A stretch of DNA of 64,000 nt from a virus: IMG/VR virus record IMGVR_UViG_3300043419_002586; one strand, 5' to 3'. Under the pieces are notes generated by a model. That model saw only the letters and a program-made list of their open reading frames with translations. It searched no databases and was not told where the DNA came from. Below, piece after piece: positions 5,168 to 27,045 of this stretch (positions are counted from its first letter, which is position 1; each line of letters starts with the position of its first letter). The translations under genes and the position numbers were made by a program.

Positions 5168-7618
5168 ATGGCAATATCATCAAAAGTAGAAGAGATCGTT
5201 CTTGAATTAACAAAAACAGTTGGTAATATTTATGATGCCTTGAATTATGGGATCGGTGATATTGATAAACCTGGATCTTCTATATTTGAAATCAATAATT
5301 TACTATCAATGGCAAATACAGGATTCCCATATTTTGGAATTTTGGAAACTGCTCCATTAGGTTGCGATACAACTTATGATATTACTTATGATCCTTATTA
5401 TGTAACTGTGAGAAGTGGTCAATTAGCTTACAATGGATCTGTTATAAATTTACAACCACAGAAGATTCCATTAAAAAAAGAATGGTCAAAAAATTACTCA
5501 GTGGGTGGATTTGGTTCTAGTTATAAATATGGAGTAACTTTGGGCTTACCTATTACAGAAGCGCAAAAAGCAACTCAAACTTGGGCAACTACTGTAAGTG
5601 ACACTTGTTTGGCAGGGACATCTATTTTATTAGTCAAAGATGCATCTATAGCAGTAAATCTAGGATTTCCAATTCAAGCATTTGTAGGTAATTATTTGAT
5701 CACTTTTTCAAATGTCACAGATGATTTGACAGGCTTGATTGTAGATCCTTCATACTACAATGGATCTTCTTTTGGAACATTACCAGCAACATACTATTTG
5801 GATAATCCAGTAAGTTTTTTGTTTCAACCAAGAGTAAAATACATTACAGGTTTTCCAGTTTTAGAAACTTCTGAAAATGTAAATACTTTTGATTATTTTC
5901 CACCATTACCTCAAAGTTGGATTCCAATCAGTAAGGTTATGGTCAAAAATCCTGAAAATCCAGTTGTTGTAGACTCAGGTACTGGTCTTACTAGAACTGT
6001 AATTGATATGCCTACAGATATATCAACATATCAAATTTTGGGCGATACTACTGATAAAAATTTAATTATTCAAAGTTGCAATGAAGCTAATAGTTCCTTG
6101 ACAGCCTATAAATCAAATGATTATGTCAGGAATACAGTTTCAGCAGTGTATCGATACTTAAGTACAGTGTCTTCTAACTCTGGTCTTACGAACAGAGAAT
6201 TGTTAGCTTCTCAACCATTTAGGAAAACAGAGTTCTATTCTAAGGGTACATCTTTTAGCGGTCTTGAAAGATTTGAATTACCTTATAATTTTTCTAAAGC
6301 ATATTTCGAAACAATTGGCTCTGATGTTCAACACACATTTGCAGTTTTTAGAGGTGATTTAATAACATATAATGCTGCAATTGGAAGTGACAATACTGCT
6401 TCTGCAACTGGATTTACAAATGTGGTAATTCCTTGTTCGAATTATATTTCATCACTTTCTTCTGGTACTCAAATTTATGGTGTGACAATTGTTTATAATA
6501 TTTCAACTGACGAATATGTTGAAAGCATTCCAGTTTACAGTAATTTGATTTCTTCTAATTTTACTTCTAGCAATTATCTTGTTGAATTAAATTGGACAGG
6601 TGCTGGAATTACAAATCCGCTTTTTTATCACGTTTACAAAAAGCCTCAATTATGCAGCGACTTAATAGAAAGAAAGCTTACAAATATAAATGAAATTCAA
6701 CATCCTTCATTTAATTCTATGACAAGTATTGAAGATAATTCTGATTTGTCTTTGAATAATGGATTGACAGCATTCAAGATTACTCCAAATGAAGATTGTT
6801 TCATAGGAGGAGTTTCATTAAAATTAAAATACACAGCTGGCGGACAAATGACAGGATCAGGCTCTACAGGTCTTTCAATTTCAATTTATTCTGCCACAGG
6901 TTCTACTCCTACGCCTAATGGTATGATTACAAGTTCATCTCTTATAAGAAATTCTGATATTCAACAAGGAACTAATGAATATACAATCAAATTTAGTTCA
7001 GGAGCTAACTTAAATCAAGGTTCTACATATTGGCTAGTCATCAATAAACCCTCAGATTTTACAACTGGTTTAGGTTCAACGGCTTTATATACCAGAATAA
7101 TTACAGGAGGATCAGGTCAAGGTTTAACTTCTGTAAACAATGGATCATCTTGGACTGGAACTGGTGGAACTGCGTATTATAAATTTAGAGGATATCTTGA
7201 TGACGGAAACATATCTGGTGAAGTATTAAGACGTGGAGTTAAGCTTACTAATAGAATAGCACTGCAGCCAAGTAAAATTTCTGTTTATGTACCTTATGTA
7301 GAAGATTTGACATCATCAAATGTTGTTTTCAATGGATCAACAACAGGAATTGCAACAACTGATGATCAAACAATCAAGAATGATCTTATCGTTACTGTAA
7401 TTGCTAAAAATGGTGAAAATGGTGAACCTACAACGTTAACTACTACAGTTCCAAAAGGTACACCAAGAAATCAAAGATTTGCTCTTGGAAATGATTTACA
7501 AGTGTTTGATAGAGTGATAGATGCTTATATTACTCCAGGAACAGACTTGACAAGAATAAACAATGGTCCAATTTTATGGGATATTTATGATCTTATAACT
7601 ATTGAAACTACACCATAG
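5168..7618 (+). CDS. Putative tail/baseplate structural protein
   Basis: 816 aa, G/S/T-rich; contains an 'AFKITPNE...ISIYS...YWLVI' domain paralogous to the one in 1..4311. Confidence 0.5.
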   Translation: MAISSKVEEIVLELTKTVGNIYDALNYGIGDIDKPGSSIFEINNLLSMANTGFPYFGILETAPLGCDTTYDITYDPYYVTVRSGQLAYNGSVINLQPQKIPLKKEWSKNYSVGGFGSSYKYGVTLGLPITEAQKATQTWATTVSDTCLAGTSILLVKDASIAVNLGFPIQAFVGNYLITFSNVTDDLTGLIVDPSYYNGSSFGTLPATYYLDNPVSFLFQPRVKYITGFPVLETSENVNTFDYFPPLPQSWIPISKVMVKNPENPVVVDSGTGLTRTVIDMPTDISTYQILGDTTDKNLIIQSCNEANSSLTAYKSNDYVRNTVSAVYRYLSTVSSNSGLTNRELLASQPFRKTEFYSKGTSFSGLERFELPYNFSKAYFETIGSDVQHTFAVFRGDLITYNAAIGSDNTASATGFTNVVIPCSNYISSLSSGTQIYGVTIVYNISTDEYVESIPVYSNLISSNFTSSNYLVELNWTGAGITNPLFYHVYKKPQLCSDLIERKLTNINEIQHPSFNSMTSIEDNSDLSLNNGLTAFKITPNEDCFIGGVSLKLKYTAGGQMTGSGSTGLSISIYSATGSTPTPNGMITSSSLIRNSDIQQGTNEYTIKFSSGANLNQGSTYWLVINKPSDFTTGLGSTALYTRIITGGSGQGLTSVNNGSSWTGTGGTAYYKFRGYLDDGNISGEVLRRGVKLTNRIALQPSKISVYVPYVEDLTSSNVVFNGSTTGIATTDDQTIKNDLIVTVIAKNGENGEPTTLTTTVPKGTPRNQRFALGNDLQVFDRVIDAYITPGTDLTRINNGPILWDIYDLITIETTP

Positions 7619-22268: not shown

Positions 22269-23414
22269 TTATACCTTCAACGCTTCTTCAATACACATAC
22301 CCAACTTTAATAACCTAAAACGCAACTTCTGATAATTTATCTCACAACGGATATCCTGAGACCAAGCTAATATACTTTTTTCCTCACCCTGATAAGTAAA
22401 TAAATGAGTCTTTTTCTTTGCATCAGGATTTGCCCATAAAGTTTTACCTTTGTCAGGAATAACAGTCATAGCAATCTCAGGTGGAACATTTCTTTTAAAT
22501 AATCTGTCATAAAGAGTGTTTTTATCTACAATACATCTTTCATCTTTTAACCAATCAAGATAGTGCTTGTTTTCTCCCCAAGCTTCAACATATAATTGAG
22601 AACGAACATCTCTATTGTCTTTTTGAGTATGAGTTAAGTTATCTAAAATTGGTTTTATGCTACATCTGTTTACATTGTATTTCAAAGATAATTCATTTGA
22701 GTTTAAACCGTTTTTATAGTCATTTCTAATCTTTTCTGCTAAAACAAAATCAACTTTGACAGTTTGTTCCAAGTAATCTTCTTTGTTGATAAATTCATTG
22801 TATATATCAAATTTTCTCTTAAGTCTAGTTTCTTCAGTGCTGTCCTTATAGATCCAATCTAAAAATGATTTAGTGTGATTTGAGCCAGTGTATATCAATT
22901 CATAATATGTGTCATTGTTTTTGATTGAGCCACATTCAGAGCCATAATGTTTTTCAAATTCTGATTTCAATCTTTCAATGAATGGCAACGTACTGACAAG
23001 CTTTACTACTAAATTTTTATTATTGGGATTATGCGCTTGAGCTAATCCAATATGACCATCACCATCAAAATAACCTCTTACAAAATGAGTTACAAATTCT
23101 TCTGGTATTTGTTCAATCCATTTAAGTTCTTGAGATTTATGTCTTGTAAGCCCAAAATTCATTAAGTCTTGAGTAATCTCTTTGGAAACAACCCACAAGT
23201 TGGCGCTTGGCAAATTTTTTCTCAAATAAATATTTCCATCATAATTTAAAAAATTCTTAAAATTTTCTAAAATATATTTATCTTTAGTATGTAGTTGTAT
23301 TGATAGCATATTTCTATGAGTAGCTAAATGACCATCTGCACATATAAATCCCAAGAAATATGCCATTTCTATTGACCAAGTCTGAAAATACTTTTCGTTT
23401 TTAGTTCTTTTCAT
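22269..23414 (-). CDS. Free-standing double-motif LAGLIDADG homing endonuclease
   Basis: 'YFLGFICADGH' and 'HFVRGYFDGDGH'; C-terminal HTH-like segment and two 'GE.K...W..D.RC' repeats. Confidence 0.85.
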   Translation of the reverse strand: MKRTKNEKYFQTWSIEMAYFLGFICADGHLATHRNMLSIQLHTKDKYILENFKNFLNYDGNIYLRKNLPSANLWVVSKEITQDLMNFGLTRHKSQELKWIEQIPEEFVTHFVRGYFDGDGHIGLAQAHNPNNKNLVVKLVSTLPFIERLKSEFEKHYGSECGSIKNNDTYYELIYTGSNHTKSFLDWIYKDSTEETRLKRKFDIYNEFINKEDYLEQTVKVDFVLAEKIRNDYKNGLNSNELSLKYNVNRCSIKPILDNLTHTQKDNRDVRSQLYVEAWGENKHYLDWLKDERCIVDKNTLYDRLFKRNVPPEIAMTVIPDKGKTLWANPDAKKKTHLFTYQGEEKSILAWSQDIRCEINYQKLRFRLLKLGMCIEEALKV

Positions 23415-23463: not shown

Positions 23464-23488
23464 TAGGAGGAGAATAAATCTCCCCCTA
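23464..23488 (-). terminator. Hairpin, likely terminator, after exon 2 of the capsid gene
   Basis: Minus strand UAGGGGGAGA-uuuau-UCUCCUCCUA followed by UUAUUUU. Confidence 0.6.
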
Positions 23489-23511: not shown

Positions 23512-24654
23512 TCAACTCACGGAAATGCGACTGACAGCGTAATCGTTGATGCTCCTGTTCGGTTTAGGCTCTTTATCCTAAACTTACCTCCTCATTTCTA
23601 AGGAGTGTCGGACTATATCTTCATCTACTAGAGATGCTTCGCACTCTTGGAAATTTCATCCGTTCTGGATTACTTTTTCTAGTCTCTGAACCTTCTAAAT
23701 ATTCCTATTTAGCTTGGTTGCTGATTGCCATATCTTTCGACTTAGGTTTCCAGCAATTCACGAAGTTTGTTCTATAATGTCGCCATTATAGAGCCCCCAT
23801 TAATTAATACTGATTCTACTTACAGCGTAATCTTGGATAAGGGCGAATCCGAGCTCTTCATAAACAACCCAGCCTAATCTCAATCTCTTTGGATCGTCAG
23901 CTGGAAGAACTGTGATGTCTTGGCGAACTGGCATTGCACCAACAAATTGGGCAGGTGCGAGAACGTAAACACTGTTCTTAGGAACCATTGTGGAAACGTG
24001 GATGTCTGCGGAATAAATATGTCCGTAGAGACCAGTCATAAGAATATCTCTTTGAGTTGCCTCATCGAAGAATTCCTTACCCCAGTTTCTGATATCCTTG
24101 TAGCGTTGTGGGTGAAGAACAACCTTAGCACCGATCAACTCGTGCTCTTCAATGAGGGTCAACGCAAGGTTGACGTTCTCTGGTTGGAGAGTACCGGAAA
24201 CGGAAATTGCTTGGTCAGTTGGAACGCCAGCGTTGATAACCTTGAAGACTTCGGTATCTTCTTGTCTTTGGAGGGAGTCCTTAGCACGAACTTGAGCTCT
24301 ATCGACAATGTAGAATCTTCTTTGGCGAATTTCGTTCAAGCGGATTTGTGGGTGTGCAGCTAATTCAACTGTAGGAACGAGAAGCTCTTCAGCCTCAACT
24401 TCTGCAGTAGGAACAGCACCACGCTTAGGAATGACGTATGACTTGACAGCAACGTCTCTCTCGTAGCGAGCAAGAGCGCCTTGTGGGAGCTCATCAACCA
24501 TCAAAAGCTTTCGACCGATGGCTTGGTACATGAGGGAGGTCTTGATTGGCTCAACCATTGCTTGTGCAAGAGCTGTGCGTCCCTCTGGAGTCTCGAGAGC
24601 CATTGCAATAATGGATTCTCTTTGCTCATTTGTGTTTCTCTTAATCATTGACAT
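23512..24654 (-). CDS. Major capsid protein (HK97-fold-like), join(24654..23840, 23551..23512)
   Basis: Follows scaffold and decoration genes, strong SD (AAGGAG), C-ending codon bias; spliced C-terminus FAL-INDYAVSRISVS*. Confidence 0.8.
23552..23839 (-). ncRNA. Group I self-splicing intron (288 nt, no endonuclease ORF) in the major capsid gene
   Basis: P AAUUGCUGGAAA (23758-23747), Q AAUCAGCAA (23726-23718), R GUUCAGAGACUA (23691-23680), S AAGAUAUAGUCC (23621-23610); IGS GGGGC pairs exon GCCCU with a U.G wobble; terminal G at 23552; splicing preserves the frame. Confidence 0.9.
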
Positions 24655-24687: not shown

Positions 24688-25341
24688 TTAGACGCCACTA
24701 AGTTGGGTGAAGTAAAGAAGGCCAGCTGCAGAGTCATAAGAATCAACTCTACCAACGATAACGCCGTCTGTTCCAACAGTGCCTAACTTGACAAGCTTAC
24801 CAGCATTTGCAACACCAGCTGCAACGGTAAGAAGATCACCTACAGCAGGTGTCCAGCCAGCAGCAACACCATCAGTGGTGATGTTTGTGGATGCAACTGA
24901 TGCAAATCTGTCGGTAATAAATTGTGCGCCTGGGGTATTGAAAACGCCAACACCTCTTCTTGGACCTTCGTATCCTGAAGAACCAGCAGTTGGGTTTGTA
25001 ACACCATTGACGTTCTCAGCCAAGAAGTCGCCAATAGCTCTCTTTGAAACAACATAAAAACCGTTGTTGTTTGCTTGAAGAACACCAGAAGCGTCGGTGT
25101 ATGAAGATCCAACTGGATCAGCAAGAATCATAGTGTTGCCGGTTCTAGCTGTATCATCAGCTGAGAAGCCAACAAACTTACCTAATTGTTGTTGAAGTGT
25201 TGTAAAACCAGTTGCTGATCTGTATGCAGCAGCTACAGTTCCGTCAGATTGAAGGAAAAGAGCATCACCTGCAAGCCATGAGCCAGAAGCAGCTGTGTTG
25301 TAGTTTGCAACTACGAGTGTGTTTAATGCACGAATAGCCAT
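24688..25341 (-). CDS. Putative head decoration/cement protein
   Basis: 217 aa, Gly/Ala/Thr-rich, directly upstream of the capsid gene, SD AGGAG. Confidence 0.55.
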   Translation of the reverse strand: MAIRALNTLVVANYNTAASGSWLAGDALFLQSDGTVAAAYRSATGFTTLQQQLGKFVGFSADDTARTGNTMILADPVGSSYTDASGVLQANNNGFYVVSKRAIGDFLAENVNGVTNPTAGSSGYEGPRRGVGVFNTPGAQFITDRFASVASTNITTDGVAAGWTPAVGDLLTVAAGVANAGKLVKLGTVGTDGVIVGRVDSYDSAAGLLYFTQLSGV

Positions 25342-25374: not shown

Positions 25375-27045
25375 TTAGTCCTCGATTTTTGGCATTGTCC
25401 AAGTACCCTTGAGAGCGCCTTGGATGTCAAGAGCTGCACTATTGTTGGATAAACCACCACTTAATGCAGGAGATGTAGATACGCCTAATGTTGAAGCGGT
25501 TCTAGTACTCATTCTTTCAGCTGCAGCAGCTGCAACTCTTTCGGTTGAAGACTGTGCGGACTTAAGTAAGAGTTTGGTTTGTCTGATCATAGAATCAGAC
25601 TTAAGACCATCGTTGATCATTTGTTCTGCATATGAATCAACTTCTTCGGAAGTAATAATTCCAGCTAAAGCTAACTTTGTAGCACAGCTATAAGAAGTTT
25701 TGACTCTTGCAAGATCAACTGCAGATGACTTGAGTTGATTTACAGTGTTGTATGCATCATTCAACTCAACTTGAGTGTCATTGATTTTCTTTTGTGTATT
25801 AACATGTTGTCTTGTGTCAACATTTTGTGCTTCAACTTCCTTGTCTTTAGACTCAGCATTTGTTGGGCAATCCTTGTTTGCACACTTGGTGTTTGGATCT
25901 TCCATAGCTGCTTCTGACAATCTCATAGAAGCGCCACAAGTTGTACACTCTACATCATGCTCATCTTTTGAAGCACCAACTGTTCTGGTGGTCTTATGTG
26001 GCATTGAAGGCATTTGAGTTGGAATTTCTGGTTGATCAGCATCTTCAAGTCCTTCGGAAGGATTCTCTAGCTTGTTCCAATCAACTGTATACTCTAATGA
26101 GCCATCTCCAGAACCTTCAAACTTACTAGGCTTTGTGACTGAAGGGAATTCTAATGAATCTGGATTCATTGTAGGAACTCTTTGTTCAGCCCAAGTTGGA
26201 TTTTGTTCCTTGAGTGAGTTACCCTCACTGTTTTCCATTGTCATGCTTGGGTAATCAACTTCACCCATCATGTCAACCAAATCTTCGTTATACTTAAATG
26301 AGGCTGACGCTGGATAAGTTTCTTCTTCTGAAGCAATCTTCTTGAGAATTTCTTCTCTTTCAGCTCTTCTTAAGAGAGCTTCTCTCTGTGCCTTGCGCTC
26401 AGCCAATGCTTGTTTAGTCATTGATCTAACCTCGTTGCTTTTTTTCATAAATTGTGTTTCATTGTCTTCGTCATCATCTGACTCATCTTCTGAATCCATA
26501 TCATCTTCGTCATCGTTAAAATGGGTGATATCTTCATCATCATCTTCGTCAGAATCATCATCTCCGCCAAGAAGATTATCTAGCGCCTCTTGCACAGCTT
26601 TTTGTGCTTGGTCTACCATATCAGCGGGAACTTCAATCTCAAAAGTGGCGACATCATCACTATCTTCTACTTCGTCTTCGTCTTCCATATCTTTATCAGA
26701 CATGTCATCGTCATCTACATCTTCTGAATCTTCATCACTCTCAAAGTGATGAAATTCCATATCATCGTCATCATCATCAGAATTATCGTTTGCGAAGTCA
26801 ACAGTCTCTTTACCATGATCAAGGTTCAAGTTAGAAACATCAAGACCAGCTTCTCTTGCAATGTTTGGAAGATACTTTGCTCTAATTGCTTTTGCGACAA
26901 CAACAGCTTCATTTGTTTCCAAAGATGCTGTCTTTTCCATGTCGGAAACGCAGTTCATAAGATCTTCCTTATCAGTTGCATTAATTTCAGCTAATCTCAT
27001 TGCTGCATATCTTTCTTGATTGGCTTTATTCGAATTTTTATTCAT
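25375..27045 (-). CDS. Putative scaffold/core protein with long acidic tracts
   Basis: Asp/Glu-rich tracts, helical segments, a CxxC..CxxxxC motif, many [KR]xA motifs; lies between protease and capsid genes. Confidence 0.55.
   Translation of the reverse strand: MNKNSNKANQERYAAMRLAEINATDKEDLMNCVSDMEKTASLETNEAVVVAKAIRAKYLPNIAREAGLDVSNLNLDHGKETVDFANDNSDDDDDDMEFHHFESDEDSEDVDDDDMSDKDMEDEDEVEDSDDVATFEIEVPADMVDQAQKAVQEALDNLLGGDDDSDEDDDEDITHFNDDEDDMDSEDESDDDEDNETQFMKKSNEVRSMTKQALAERKAQREALLRRAEREEILKKIASEEETYPASASFKYNEDLVDMMGEVDYPSMTMENSEGNSLKEQNPTWAEQRVPTMNPDSLEFPSVTKPSKFEGSGDGSLEYTVDWNKLENPSEGLEDADQPEIPTQMPSMPHKTTRTVGASKDEHDVECTTCGASMRLSEAAMEDPNTKCANKDCPTNAESKDKEVEAQNVDTRQHVNTQKKINDTQVELNDAYNTVNQLKSSAVDLARVKTSYSCATKLALAGIITSEEVDSYAEQMINDGLKSDSMIRQTKLLLKSAQSSTERVAAAAAERMSTRTASTLGVSTSPALSGGLSNNSAALDIQGALKGTWTMPKIED

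Follow-up and report, generated by a model that had tools for sequence, protein, structure and literature searches.

A group I intron 12 codons from the end of a phage-G-like major capsid gene begins with a conserved in-frame look-alike of the downstream exon

In the introns of bacterial and phage protein genes, ribosomes trail the polymerase and may enter the RNA before it has folded, and an early in-frame stop codon inside such an intron is usually taken to do no more than park the ribosome. A capsid protein must be supplied in large numbers for every particle, and defective subunits might spoil its assembly. How, then, can a selfish intron be tolerated in a high-copy gene? Here we discuss a locus in a 64,000-nt stretch of viral DNA (IMG/VR record IMGVR_UViG_3300043419_002586; hereafter the window) at which a group I intron in the capsid gene begins with a full look-alike of the ending that it interrupts; this look-alike, which occurs in three diverged versions, would offer a concrete and testable answer to that question.

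The host gene lies on the minus strand. Read without splicing, an open reading frame of 284 aa extends from 24654 to 23800 (-), and its product aligns with the major head protein gp27 of Bacillus phage G (48% identity, 283 aa, E 2e-90), a similarity on which we take the host gene to be the major capsid gene of a phage-G-like jumbo phage. Exon 1 (23840..24654, (-)), in which the gp27 similarity resides, comprises codons 1-271 and 2 nt of codon 272, with the terminus ...TTC GCC CT at 23840, and its protein is identical over 271 aa to that of an intron-less relative, L002. From there the unspliced frame adds 12 residues, IQDYAVSRISIN, and stops at 23802-23800; when 23840 is joined to 23551, the tail becomes INDYAVSRISVS, with its stop at 23514-23512. 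Exon 2 (23512..23551, (-)), which supplies the last nt of codon 272, 12 canonical-tail codons and the stop codon, fits the family consensus tail, and is followed by a terminator-like hairpin (23468..23487, (-)) that, together with the sequence 3' of exon 2, is homologous to the post-stop sequence in several intron-less relatives. An AlphaFold model of the capsid protein, with a mean pLDDT of 54 (low confidence, unfit for a fold search), renders the last C-terminal residues as a confident strand. The capsid gene is immediately preceded by a gene for 217 aa (24688-25341), which occupies the place that the decoration protein gp26 has in phage G, and farther upstream is one for a 556-aa protein (25375-27045) that has long Asp/Glu runs and a scaffold-like look; neither has a Pfam match.

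Between the exons lies an ORF-less intron of 288 nt (23552..23839, (-)), inserted in phase 2 of codon 272, 12 codons ahead of the end of the capsid gene, and identified by its Rfam match, its modelled pairs, its minimum free energy (MFE) fold and its absence from relatives. Rfam RF00028 matches 23816-23588 (-) with 93.7 bits (E 8e-23; threshold 50), and this group I intron is the sole RNA family match across the window and the 122-kb virus record. Related introns were collected by several routes. A metagenome scan with a loose pattern, with at least one true relative among the 120 stretches listed, yielded L112, the intron of which is 94.8% identical to that of the window, and about 20 further contigs came from exact-protein look-ups in ENA, NCBI, JGI and Logan. 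In IMG/VR scans, no further capsid gene with an intron turned up: the single match to the guide motif (L082) was due to chance, and exon-anchored gap patterns at three distances gave no match. An odd tail in L045, picked up by a regular expression, proved to belong to an unrelated gene. A search of the C-terminal 50 residues against 5.8 billion protein clusters returned 157 representatives, only 2/157 of which lack the Asn motif of the tail, and both of these are intron-bearing alleles with intact look-alike tails, L251 and L252; truncated or garbled capsid ends were found in 0/157. In L251, the look-alike tail reads VQDYSVSRVTIN, the ribozyme is 95.6% identical to the L112 type, and the capsid background is L023-like, as is the tail that its exon 2 encodes. 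In L252, known from a single short contig without exon 2, the look-alike reads VTDYAVARIICN, the ribozyme is ~76% identical, and the spacer to the guide is 18 nt longer, with the insertion site and phase unchanged. Their Rfam scores are about 88 bits (88-88.2) for L112 and L251, and 58.6 bits for L252, in which the contig end cuts the intron. The L112 intron (5843-6071) was missed by a multi-source cmscan at the gathering threshold and scored 88 bits when run singly; the speed filters of cmscan can lose true matches in larger batches.

The predicted fold and splice sites hold together across these relatives. P1 pairs GCCCU with GGGGC at 5/5 positions in all sequences, with a U.G pair at the 5' splice site, and the terminal intron G is 23552. 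The internal guide (23793..23803, (-)) is made up of a P10 guide, UUAAUG (23803-23798), and a P1 guide, GGGGC (23797-23793), and the stop codon of the unspliced frame lies inside the P10 guide, one base ahead of the G run that holds the P1 guide; P10 forms 6/6 pairs in L112-type alleles and 5/6 in the window. We built a pairing model of 75 base pairs, from P1 to P9.1, with P7 as a pseudoknot and P10 replacing the P1 extension, in which 98.7% of the pairs form across four distinct sequences, against 34-43% when the partners are slid, and 7/8 helix substitutions preserve pairing, including 2 compensatory changes (one each in P2 and P9.1) and three to G.U. The core helices P3-P8 form all of their pairs and are invariant among near-identical copies, the compensatory changes being peripheral, and the covariation support is modest, because 33/500 shuffles attain it. 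An unconstrained MFE fold recovers P1, P2, P4-P6, P8, P9 and P9.1 (z = -3.3), its P1 consisting of the exon GCCCU and three intron bases set against the guide. An earlier sequence-only reading of this DNA had proposed an intron at 23839-23552 with these splice sites, the P1 U.G pair, P10, the terminal G and an intact ribozyme core, and had named a covariance-model search and folding as checks; the Rfam match, the pair model, the MFE fold with most of its helices, and the relatives' tails, which match exon 2, all agree with it, and we regard the group I intron as virtually certain to be real.

Whether the ribozyme is also at work is best judged from the intron-less relatives. The intron is missing, to the base, from 80/80 related IMG/VR capsid loci, in which the gene runs uninterrupted, and the tails of intron-less relatives resemble exon 2, unlike the in-intron tail. 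Asn stands at tail position 2 in 78/78 real tails from the 80 related loci and in phage G, and at the intron-bearing locus it is restored only by exon 2. The predicted spliced products of six L112-type alleles are 100% identical over 284 residues to the capsid protein of the intron-less L216, and intron-less alleles of that population end in INDYSVSRISVA, which is what exon 2 of their intron-bearing counterparts is predicted to encode; exon 2 itself occurs in six nucleotide versions that encode just two near-identical peptides. This agreement of predicted spliced product and intron-less capsid is the strongest support available for the junction, short of RNA. When the spliced junction was sought in the DNA of all fetched contigs, the sole match was an intron-less DNA allele, L023. 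On this evidence, splicing very probably yields the canonical 284-aa protein. The contrary proposal, that the ribozyme is inactive, that the look-alike is the working C-terminus and that exon 2 is an orphan remnant, could account for the conservation of exon 2 by its repeated import with endonuclease cassettes; however, the ribozyme core is intact and its substitutions keep the helices, the P10 guide fits exon 2 at 5-6/6 positions, the frame is restored exactly to a product equal to intron-less capsids, and the supposed working protein would miss an Asn that is invariant from phage G onward, so that we give a dead intron hardly any credence.

The second, and more unusual, aspect of the locus is what the intron begins with. 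Within the P1 loop (23800..23839, (-)), 1 nt completing codon 272 is followed by 12 codons and a stop, and L251 and L252 carry diverged versions of the same length, so that each of the three versions (window type, L251, L252) has 12 codons plus stop. In the window, the in-intron tail and the exon 2 tail share 9/12 residues, 4/9 of them in different codons. Truncated, frameshifted or absent look-alikes were not found among the intron-bearing relatives recovered, and the presence of the tail in every one of them, together with the two further diverged forms, argues that its resemblance to exon 2 is not due to chance. Pairwise, the look-alikes show 13, 17 and 16 nucleotide differences over 36 nt and just 4, 5 and 6 residue differences; when equal numbers of changes were scattered at random in simulations, residue changes as few as these, with no stop, arose with P = 0.001, 0.0002 and 0.014. 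The Arg codon is AGA, AGG or CGT across the versions, and the replacements peculiar to the in-intron tails are all conservative. Among alleles of the window/L112 group, a sample gathered partly by exact protein identity and hence biased, the tail is invariant save for one Ser codon (AGT, AGC or TCA); the window and L112 differ at 1/40 nt in the tail and at 14/248 in the ribozyme, counts that leave this pair without power on the conservation of the tail. The look-alike is almost certainly a conserved, inherited part of the intron. A possible structural cause, namely that the tail is kept as an RNA hairpin, was rejected, as the MFE stems are broken in L251 with no compensation; RNA structure therefore does not account for the conservation.

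Conserved as it is, the look-alike is not equivalent to the real tail, because the invariant Asn is replaced, by Gln in the window type, Gln in L251 and Thr in L252, and its final residue is Asn in all three; a product without the Asn at position 2 may differ functionally from the canonical protein. What the sequence-only reading had called a recoded spare copy of the exon is in frame, of equal length and conserved in relatives, including the diverged L251 and L252, rather than an unconserved copy, and to this extent the description holds; with its Asn replaced, it is better called a look-alike. That reading's account of the two tails, their 9/12 identity, the four recoded residues and the stop position is correct base for base, and the frames, read directly, would give a 284-aa capsid protein from both RNA forms. 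Its argument that different codons imply selection on both copies is weaker than it seems, because synonymous sites are hypervariable in all capsid tails of the group, the exon 2 region varies among near-identical introns with the endonuclease present or absent, and the in-intron cores are nearer to real tails than to each other.

To understand how such a pattern might arise, the mobility of the locus has to be taken into account. Adjoining the capsid gene on its downstream side is a free-standing LAGLIDADG homing endonuclease gene of 381 aa (22269..23414, (-)), recognized by Pfam LAGLIDADG_3 and LAGLIDADG_1 (PF14528, 35.5 bits; PF00961, 27.5 bits; both exceeding the cut-offs). Its LAGLIDADG domains end near residue 190 of 381; the C-terminal half, which has no Pfam match and is conserved in 382-aa relatives, may be a DNA-binding extension. 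In many relatives, intron-bearing or not, tblastn against the collected loci finds homologues that are 33-76% identical at this position, and two deep lineages, 33-35% identical, adjoin the same intron; as a single query in IMG/VR, the protein retrieved just one relative. Contigs whose neighbouring protein (219 aa) is identical include all four combinations of intron and endonuclease gene (both, either alone, neither), and the intron-bearing open reading frame and the intron-less protein are about equally common (33 vs 43 index blocks). The intron and a short exon 1 tract are 95-99% identical in capsid backgrounds that are ~17% apart, and the final 20-45 nt of exon 1 form a tract found only in intron-bearing alleles. 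The intron-bearing L214 and the intron-less L216, which carries the endonuclease gene, and L217, which lacks it, are identical for ~765 nt, then show 5 differences in 45 nt and then 15-19 in the last 45, whereas the window gene is near-identical to L002 until the last ~100 nt and ~17% from L112 throughout except beside the intron. This mosaic background implies that 20-45 nt of exon 1 moved between backgrounds along with the in-intron tail and the ribozyme, and the comparison of alleles indicates that the intron is mobile. Seen along its length, the capsid gene of the window (23840-24654) is L002-like for ~700 nt (0-2 differences per 45 nt), nearly L001 from 121 to ~25 nt before the splice site, and then enters the intron-linked tract.

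On the other side of the intron, sequence diverges sharply from the 3' splice site on, the exon 2 region being accompanied by either endonuclease lineage or by none. Exon 1 is 96% identical to L002, and both tails of the window are just 60-72% identical to any relative, a consequence of the sequence traffic linked to the intron and the endonuclease. Comparison of intron-less alleles that carry the endonuclease gene with those that lack it shows no difference up to 4 nt ahead of the intron site and 13/45 nt changed beyond that point, the divergence setting in only at the Ala-Leu codons. Because these endonuclease-linked tracts begin within a few bases of the intron site, the intron and the endonuclease probably share one target, as in collaborative homing. 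In the intron-less L023 (4807-4830), the nearest background to the intron-bearing L251, exon 1 ends in GCCCT, as P1 of the intron requires; with this ending already in place, it looks like a ready homing site. An intron and an endonuclease gene, both selfish elements, converge here on a single site in a natural setting that is well sampled, and variants with and without each of them are plentiful in public freshwater metagenomes.

Sequence traffic of this kind bears directly on the question of whether the look-alike is kept for its translation. That each tail is merely a remnant of the recipient's own was rejected, since the same tail occurs in two backgrounds with differing own tails, and the L251 tail also mismatches its background. 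The look-alike cores (codons 3-10) lie 3-4 nt from some real tails of other phages and 9-10 nt from each other, and a Ser codon is changed at all three bases from one near-identical intron to another, a swap that looks like a short gene-conversion patch; the in-intron tails thus seem to exchange sequence with real tails, and such exchange could produce a coding-like pattern without selection on the translation of the look-alike. A by-product reading can be built on this in two parts: the tail would have begun as a partial 3'-end duplication, left by imprecise double-strand-break repair beside the endonuclease gene and having no protein role, and recombination with the real tails of co-infecting phages would have kept its coding look, with its edges shaped by the ribozyme or by endonuclease immunity. 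The interspersion of tail cores among real tails and the fully swapped Ser codon fit this reading, as do the recombination hot spot with breakpoints at the splice sites, the loss of the invariant Asn from every look-alike copy, and the partial C-terminal duplications beside homing endonuclease genes in atp6 and cob of fungal mitochondria (PMC6279837). It sits less easily with the retention of exactly 12 codons and a stop in three lineages, including L252 with its ~76% ribozyme and 18-nt longer spacer, with the lack of any decayed or deleted copies among those seen, and with the movement of the tail with the intron into a new background in place of being rebuilt from the recipient. Furthermore, several features at the edges lie beyond what recombination could supply (the replaced Asn, a position 11 that is Ile or Cys, the Asn at the end, the stop codon and the length of exactly 12 codons), and these, unavailable from real tails, are kept with synonymous or conservative change only, although the counts are small. 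We rate this by-product reading as less likely than not.

The reading that we prefer is that the look-alike is kept because its translation product is useful, that is, as a fail-safe, and we rate its chances as about even. An ORF-less, mobile, self-splicing intron would join exon 1 to the 40-nt exon 2 to give the canonical 284-aa protein; ribosomes trailing the polymerase would enter the capsid RNA before splicing, and because the intron opens with an in-frame look-alike and a stop, the unspliced RNA would still encode a full-length capsid protein. Such ribosomes would complete a full-length, near-native subunit in place of a truncated or garbled one, and the cost of the intron in the most heavily translated late gene would thereby be reduced. 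The replaced Asn codon would prevent the look-alike from taking the place of exon 2 at the P10 guide, or would let it escape the endonuclease cut, or both: with the canonical codon present, the first bases of the intron could match the P10 guide no less well than exon 2, and so compete with exon ligation. This competition is a plausible reason for the loss of the Asn codon, endonuclease resistance being the alternative.

Endonuclease resistance could also be made the whole explanation, the tail serving at the DNA level as a cleavage-resistant target copy or as a homology arm for intron transfer, with the peptide irrelevant. The Asn codon is indeed replaced in 3/3 versions, the Asn and the following Asp-Tyr are the most conserved part of the tail and a likely endonuclease target, and endonuclease-linked tracts start at the intron site; but a resistant copy needs neither an open frame, a fixed length nor conservative substitutions, and exon 1 and exon 2 already serve as homology arms, which makes a purely DNA-level role improbable. 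The sequence-only reading had also offered ribozyme-controlled production of two isoforms, for which we find no support. In such a scheme, tuned splicing would make canonical and Gln-variant subunits with separate roles in the capsid, as might be suggested by two open frames of equal length and by the replacement of the Asn position in every look-alike, though the residue differs. The substitute may be either Gln or Thr, regulatory elements were not seen, and, by the index-block counts given above, relatives that lack the intron but have the same capsid protein occur no less often and get by with one form; we think this scheme very unlikely, though it keeps slightly more ground than the dead intron. 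If the fail-safe reading is extended beyond this locus, group I introns near the 3' end of highly translated virus genes would carry a selected, translated stand-in for the exon as a general adaptation that limits their cost, a generalization that we put forward tentatively and would rate somewhat below an even chance. If true, splicing failure or delay would cost the host genes of such selfish introns nothing.

Several known systems resemble parts of this arrangement. In collaborative homing, as described for the ORF-less group I intron of cyanophage S-PM2 psbA with the adjacent free-standing F-CphI and for T4 mobE with the nrdB intron (PMC3984707; PMC2790892), an ORF-less intron adjoins a free-standing endonuclease gene, and the present locus is alike in this, in the independent occurrence of the two elements and in an endonuclease-linked tract that starts at the insertion site. 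Unlike in the S-PM2 and T4 pairs, the enzyme here belongs to the LAGLIDADG family, the host gene encodes a capsid protein, the virus is a phage-G-like jumbo phage, and cleavage at the intron site is inferred; no in-intron copy of the downstream exon has been reported for those systems. Group I introns in capsid genes are likewise known, from mycobacteriophage LittleE, for which splicing was shown by RT-PCR and N-terminal sequencing (PMC3706429), and from lactococcal phage Tuc2009 (as cited in PMC3706429). As in LittleE and Tuc2009, the intron here lies in the most highly expressed late gene, exon 1 ends in U and the intron ends in G; the LittleE intron, however, has an endonuclease gene within it and lies away from the 3' end, and no exon look-alike has been described for it. 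In-frame stops just inside phage group I introns, and effects of ribosomes on T4 td splicing, have been documented (PMC3984707), and as in introns of the T4 td type, the exon 1 frame here stops early in the intron, ahead of the catalytic core, so that translation and folding should interact; in contrast to the td type, 12 sense codons mimic the real tail before the stop, and the product is not truncated but of full length. Partial C-terminal duplications of fungal mitochondrial atp6 and cob (PMC6279837) similarly tie a second copy of a gene's 3' end to LAGLIDADG or GIY-YIG genes, but these are downstream, unused fragments, whereas the copy here is upstream, intronic, in frame and read if splicing fails. 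Phage capsid-gene introns (PMC3706429) and collaborative homing (PMC3984707) are already known; for an in-frame exon look-alike within a group I intron, the literature, of which our coverage was incomplete, yielded no account. Other arrangements of group I introns were encountered along the way, including five matches nearly back to back (52-111 bits) in a 3.5-kb metagenome contig (L150:784-3022), and two closely spaced introns in each of two IMG/VR sequences (L249:6181-7628 and L250:1149-1762), with P4-P5 like that of the window's intron.
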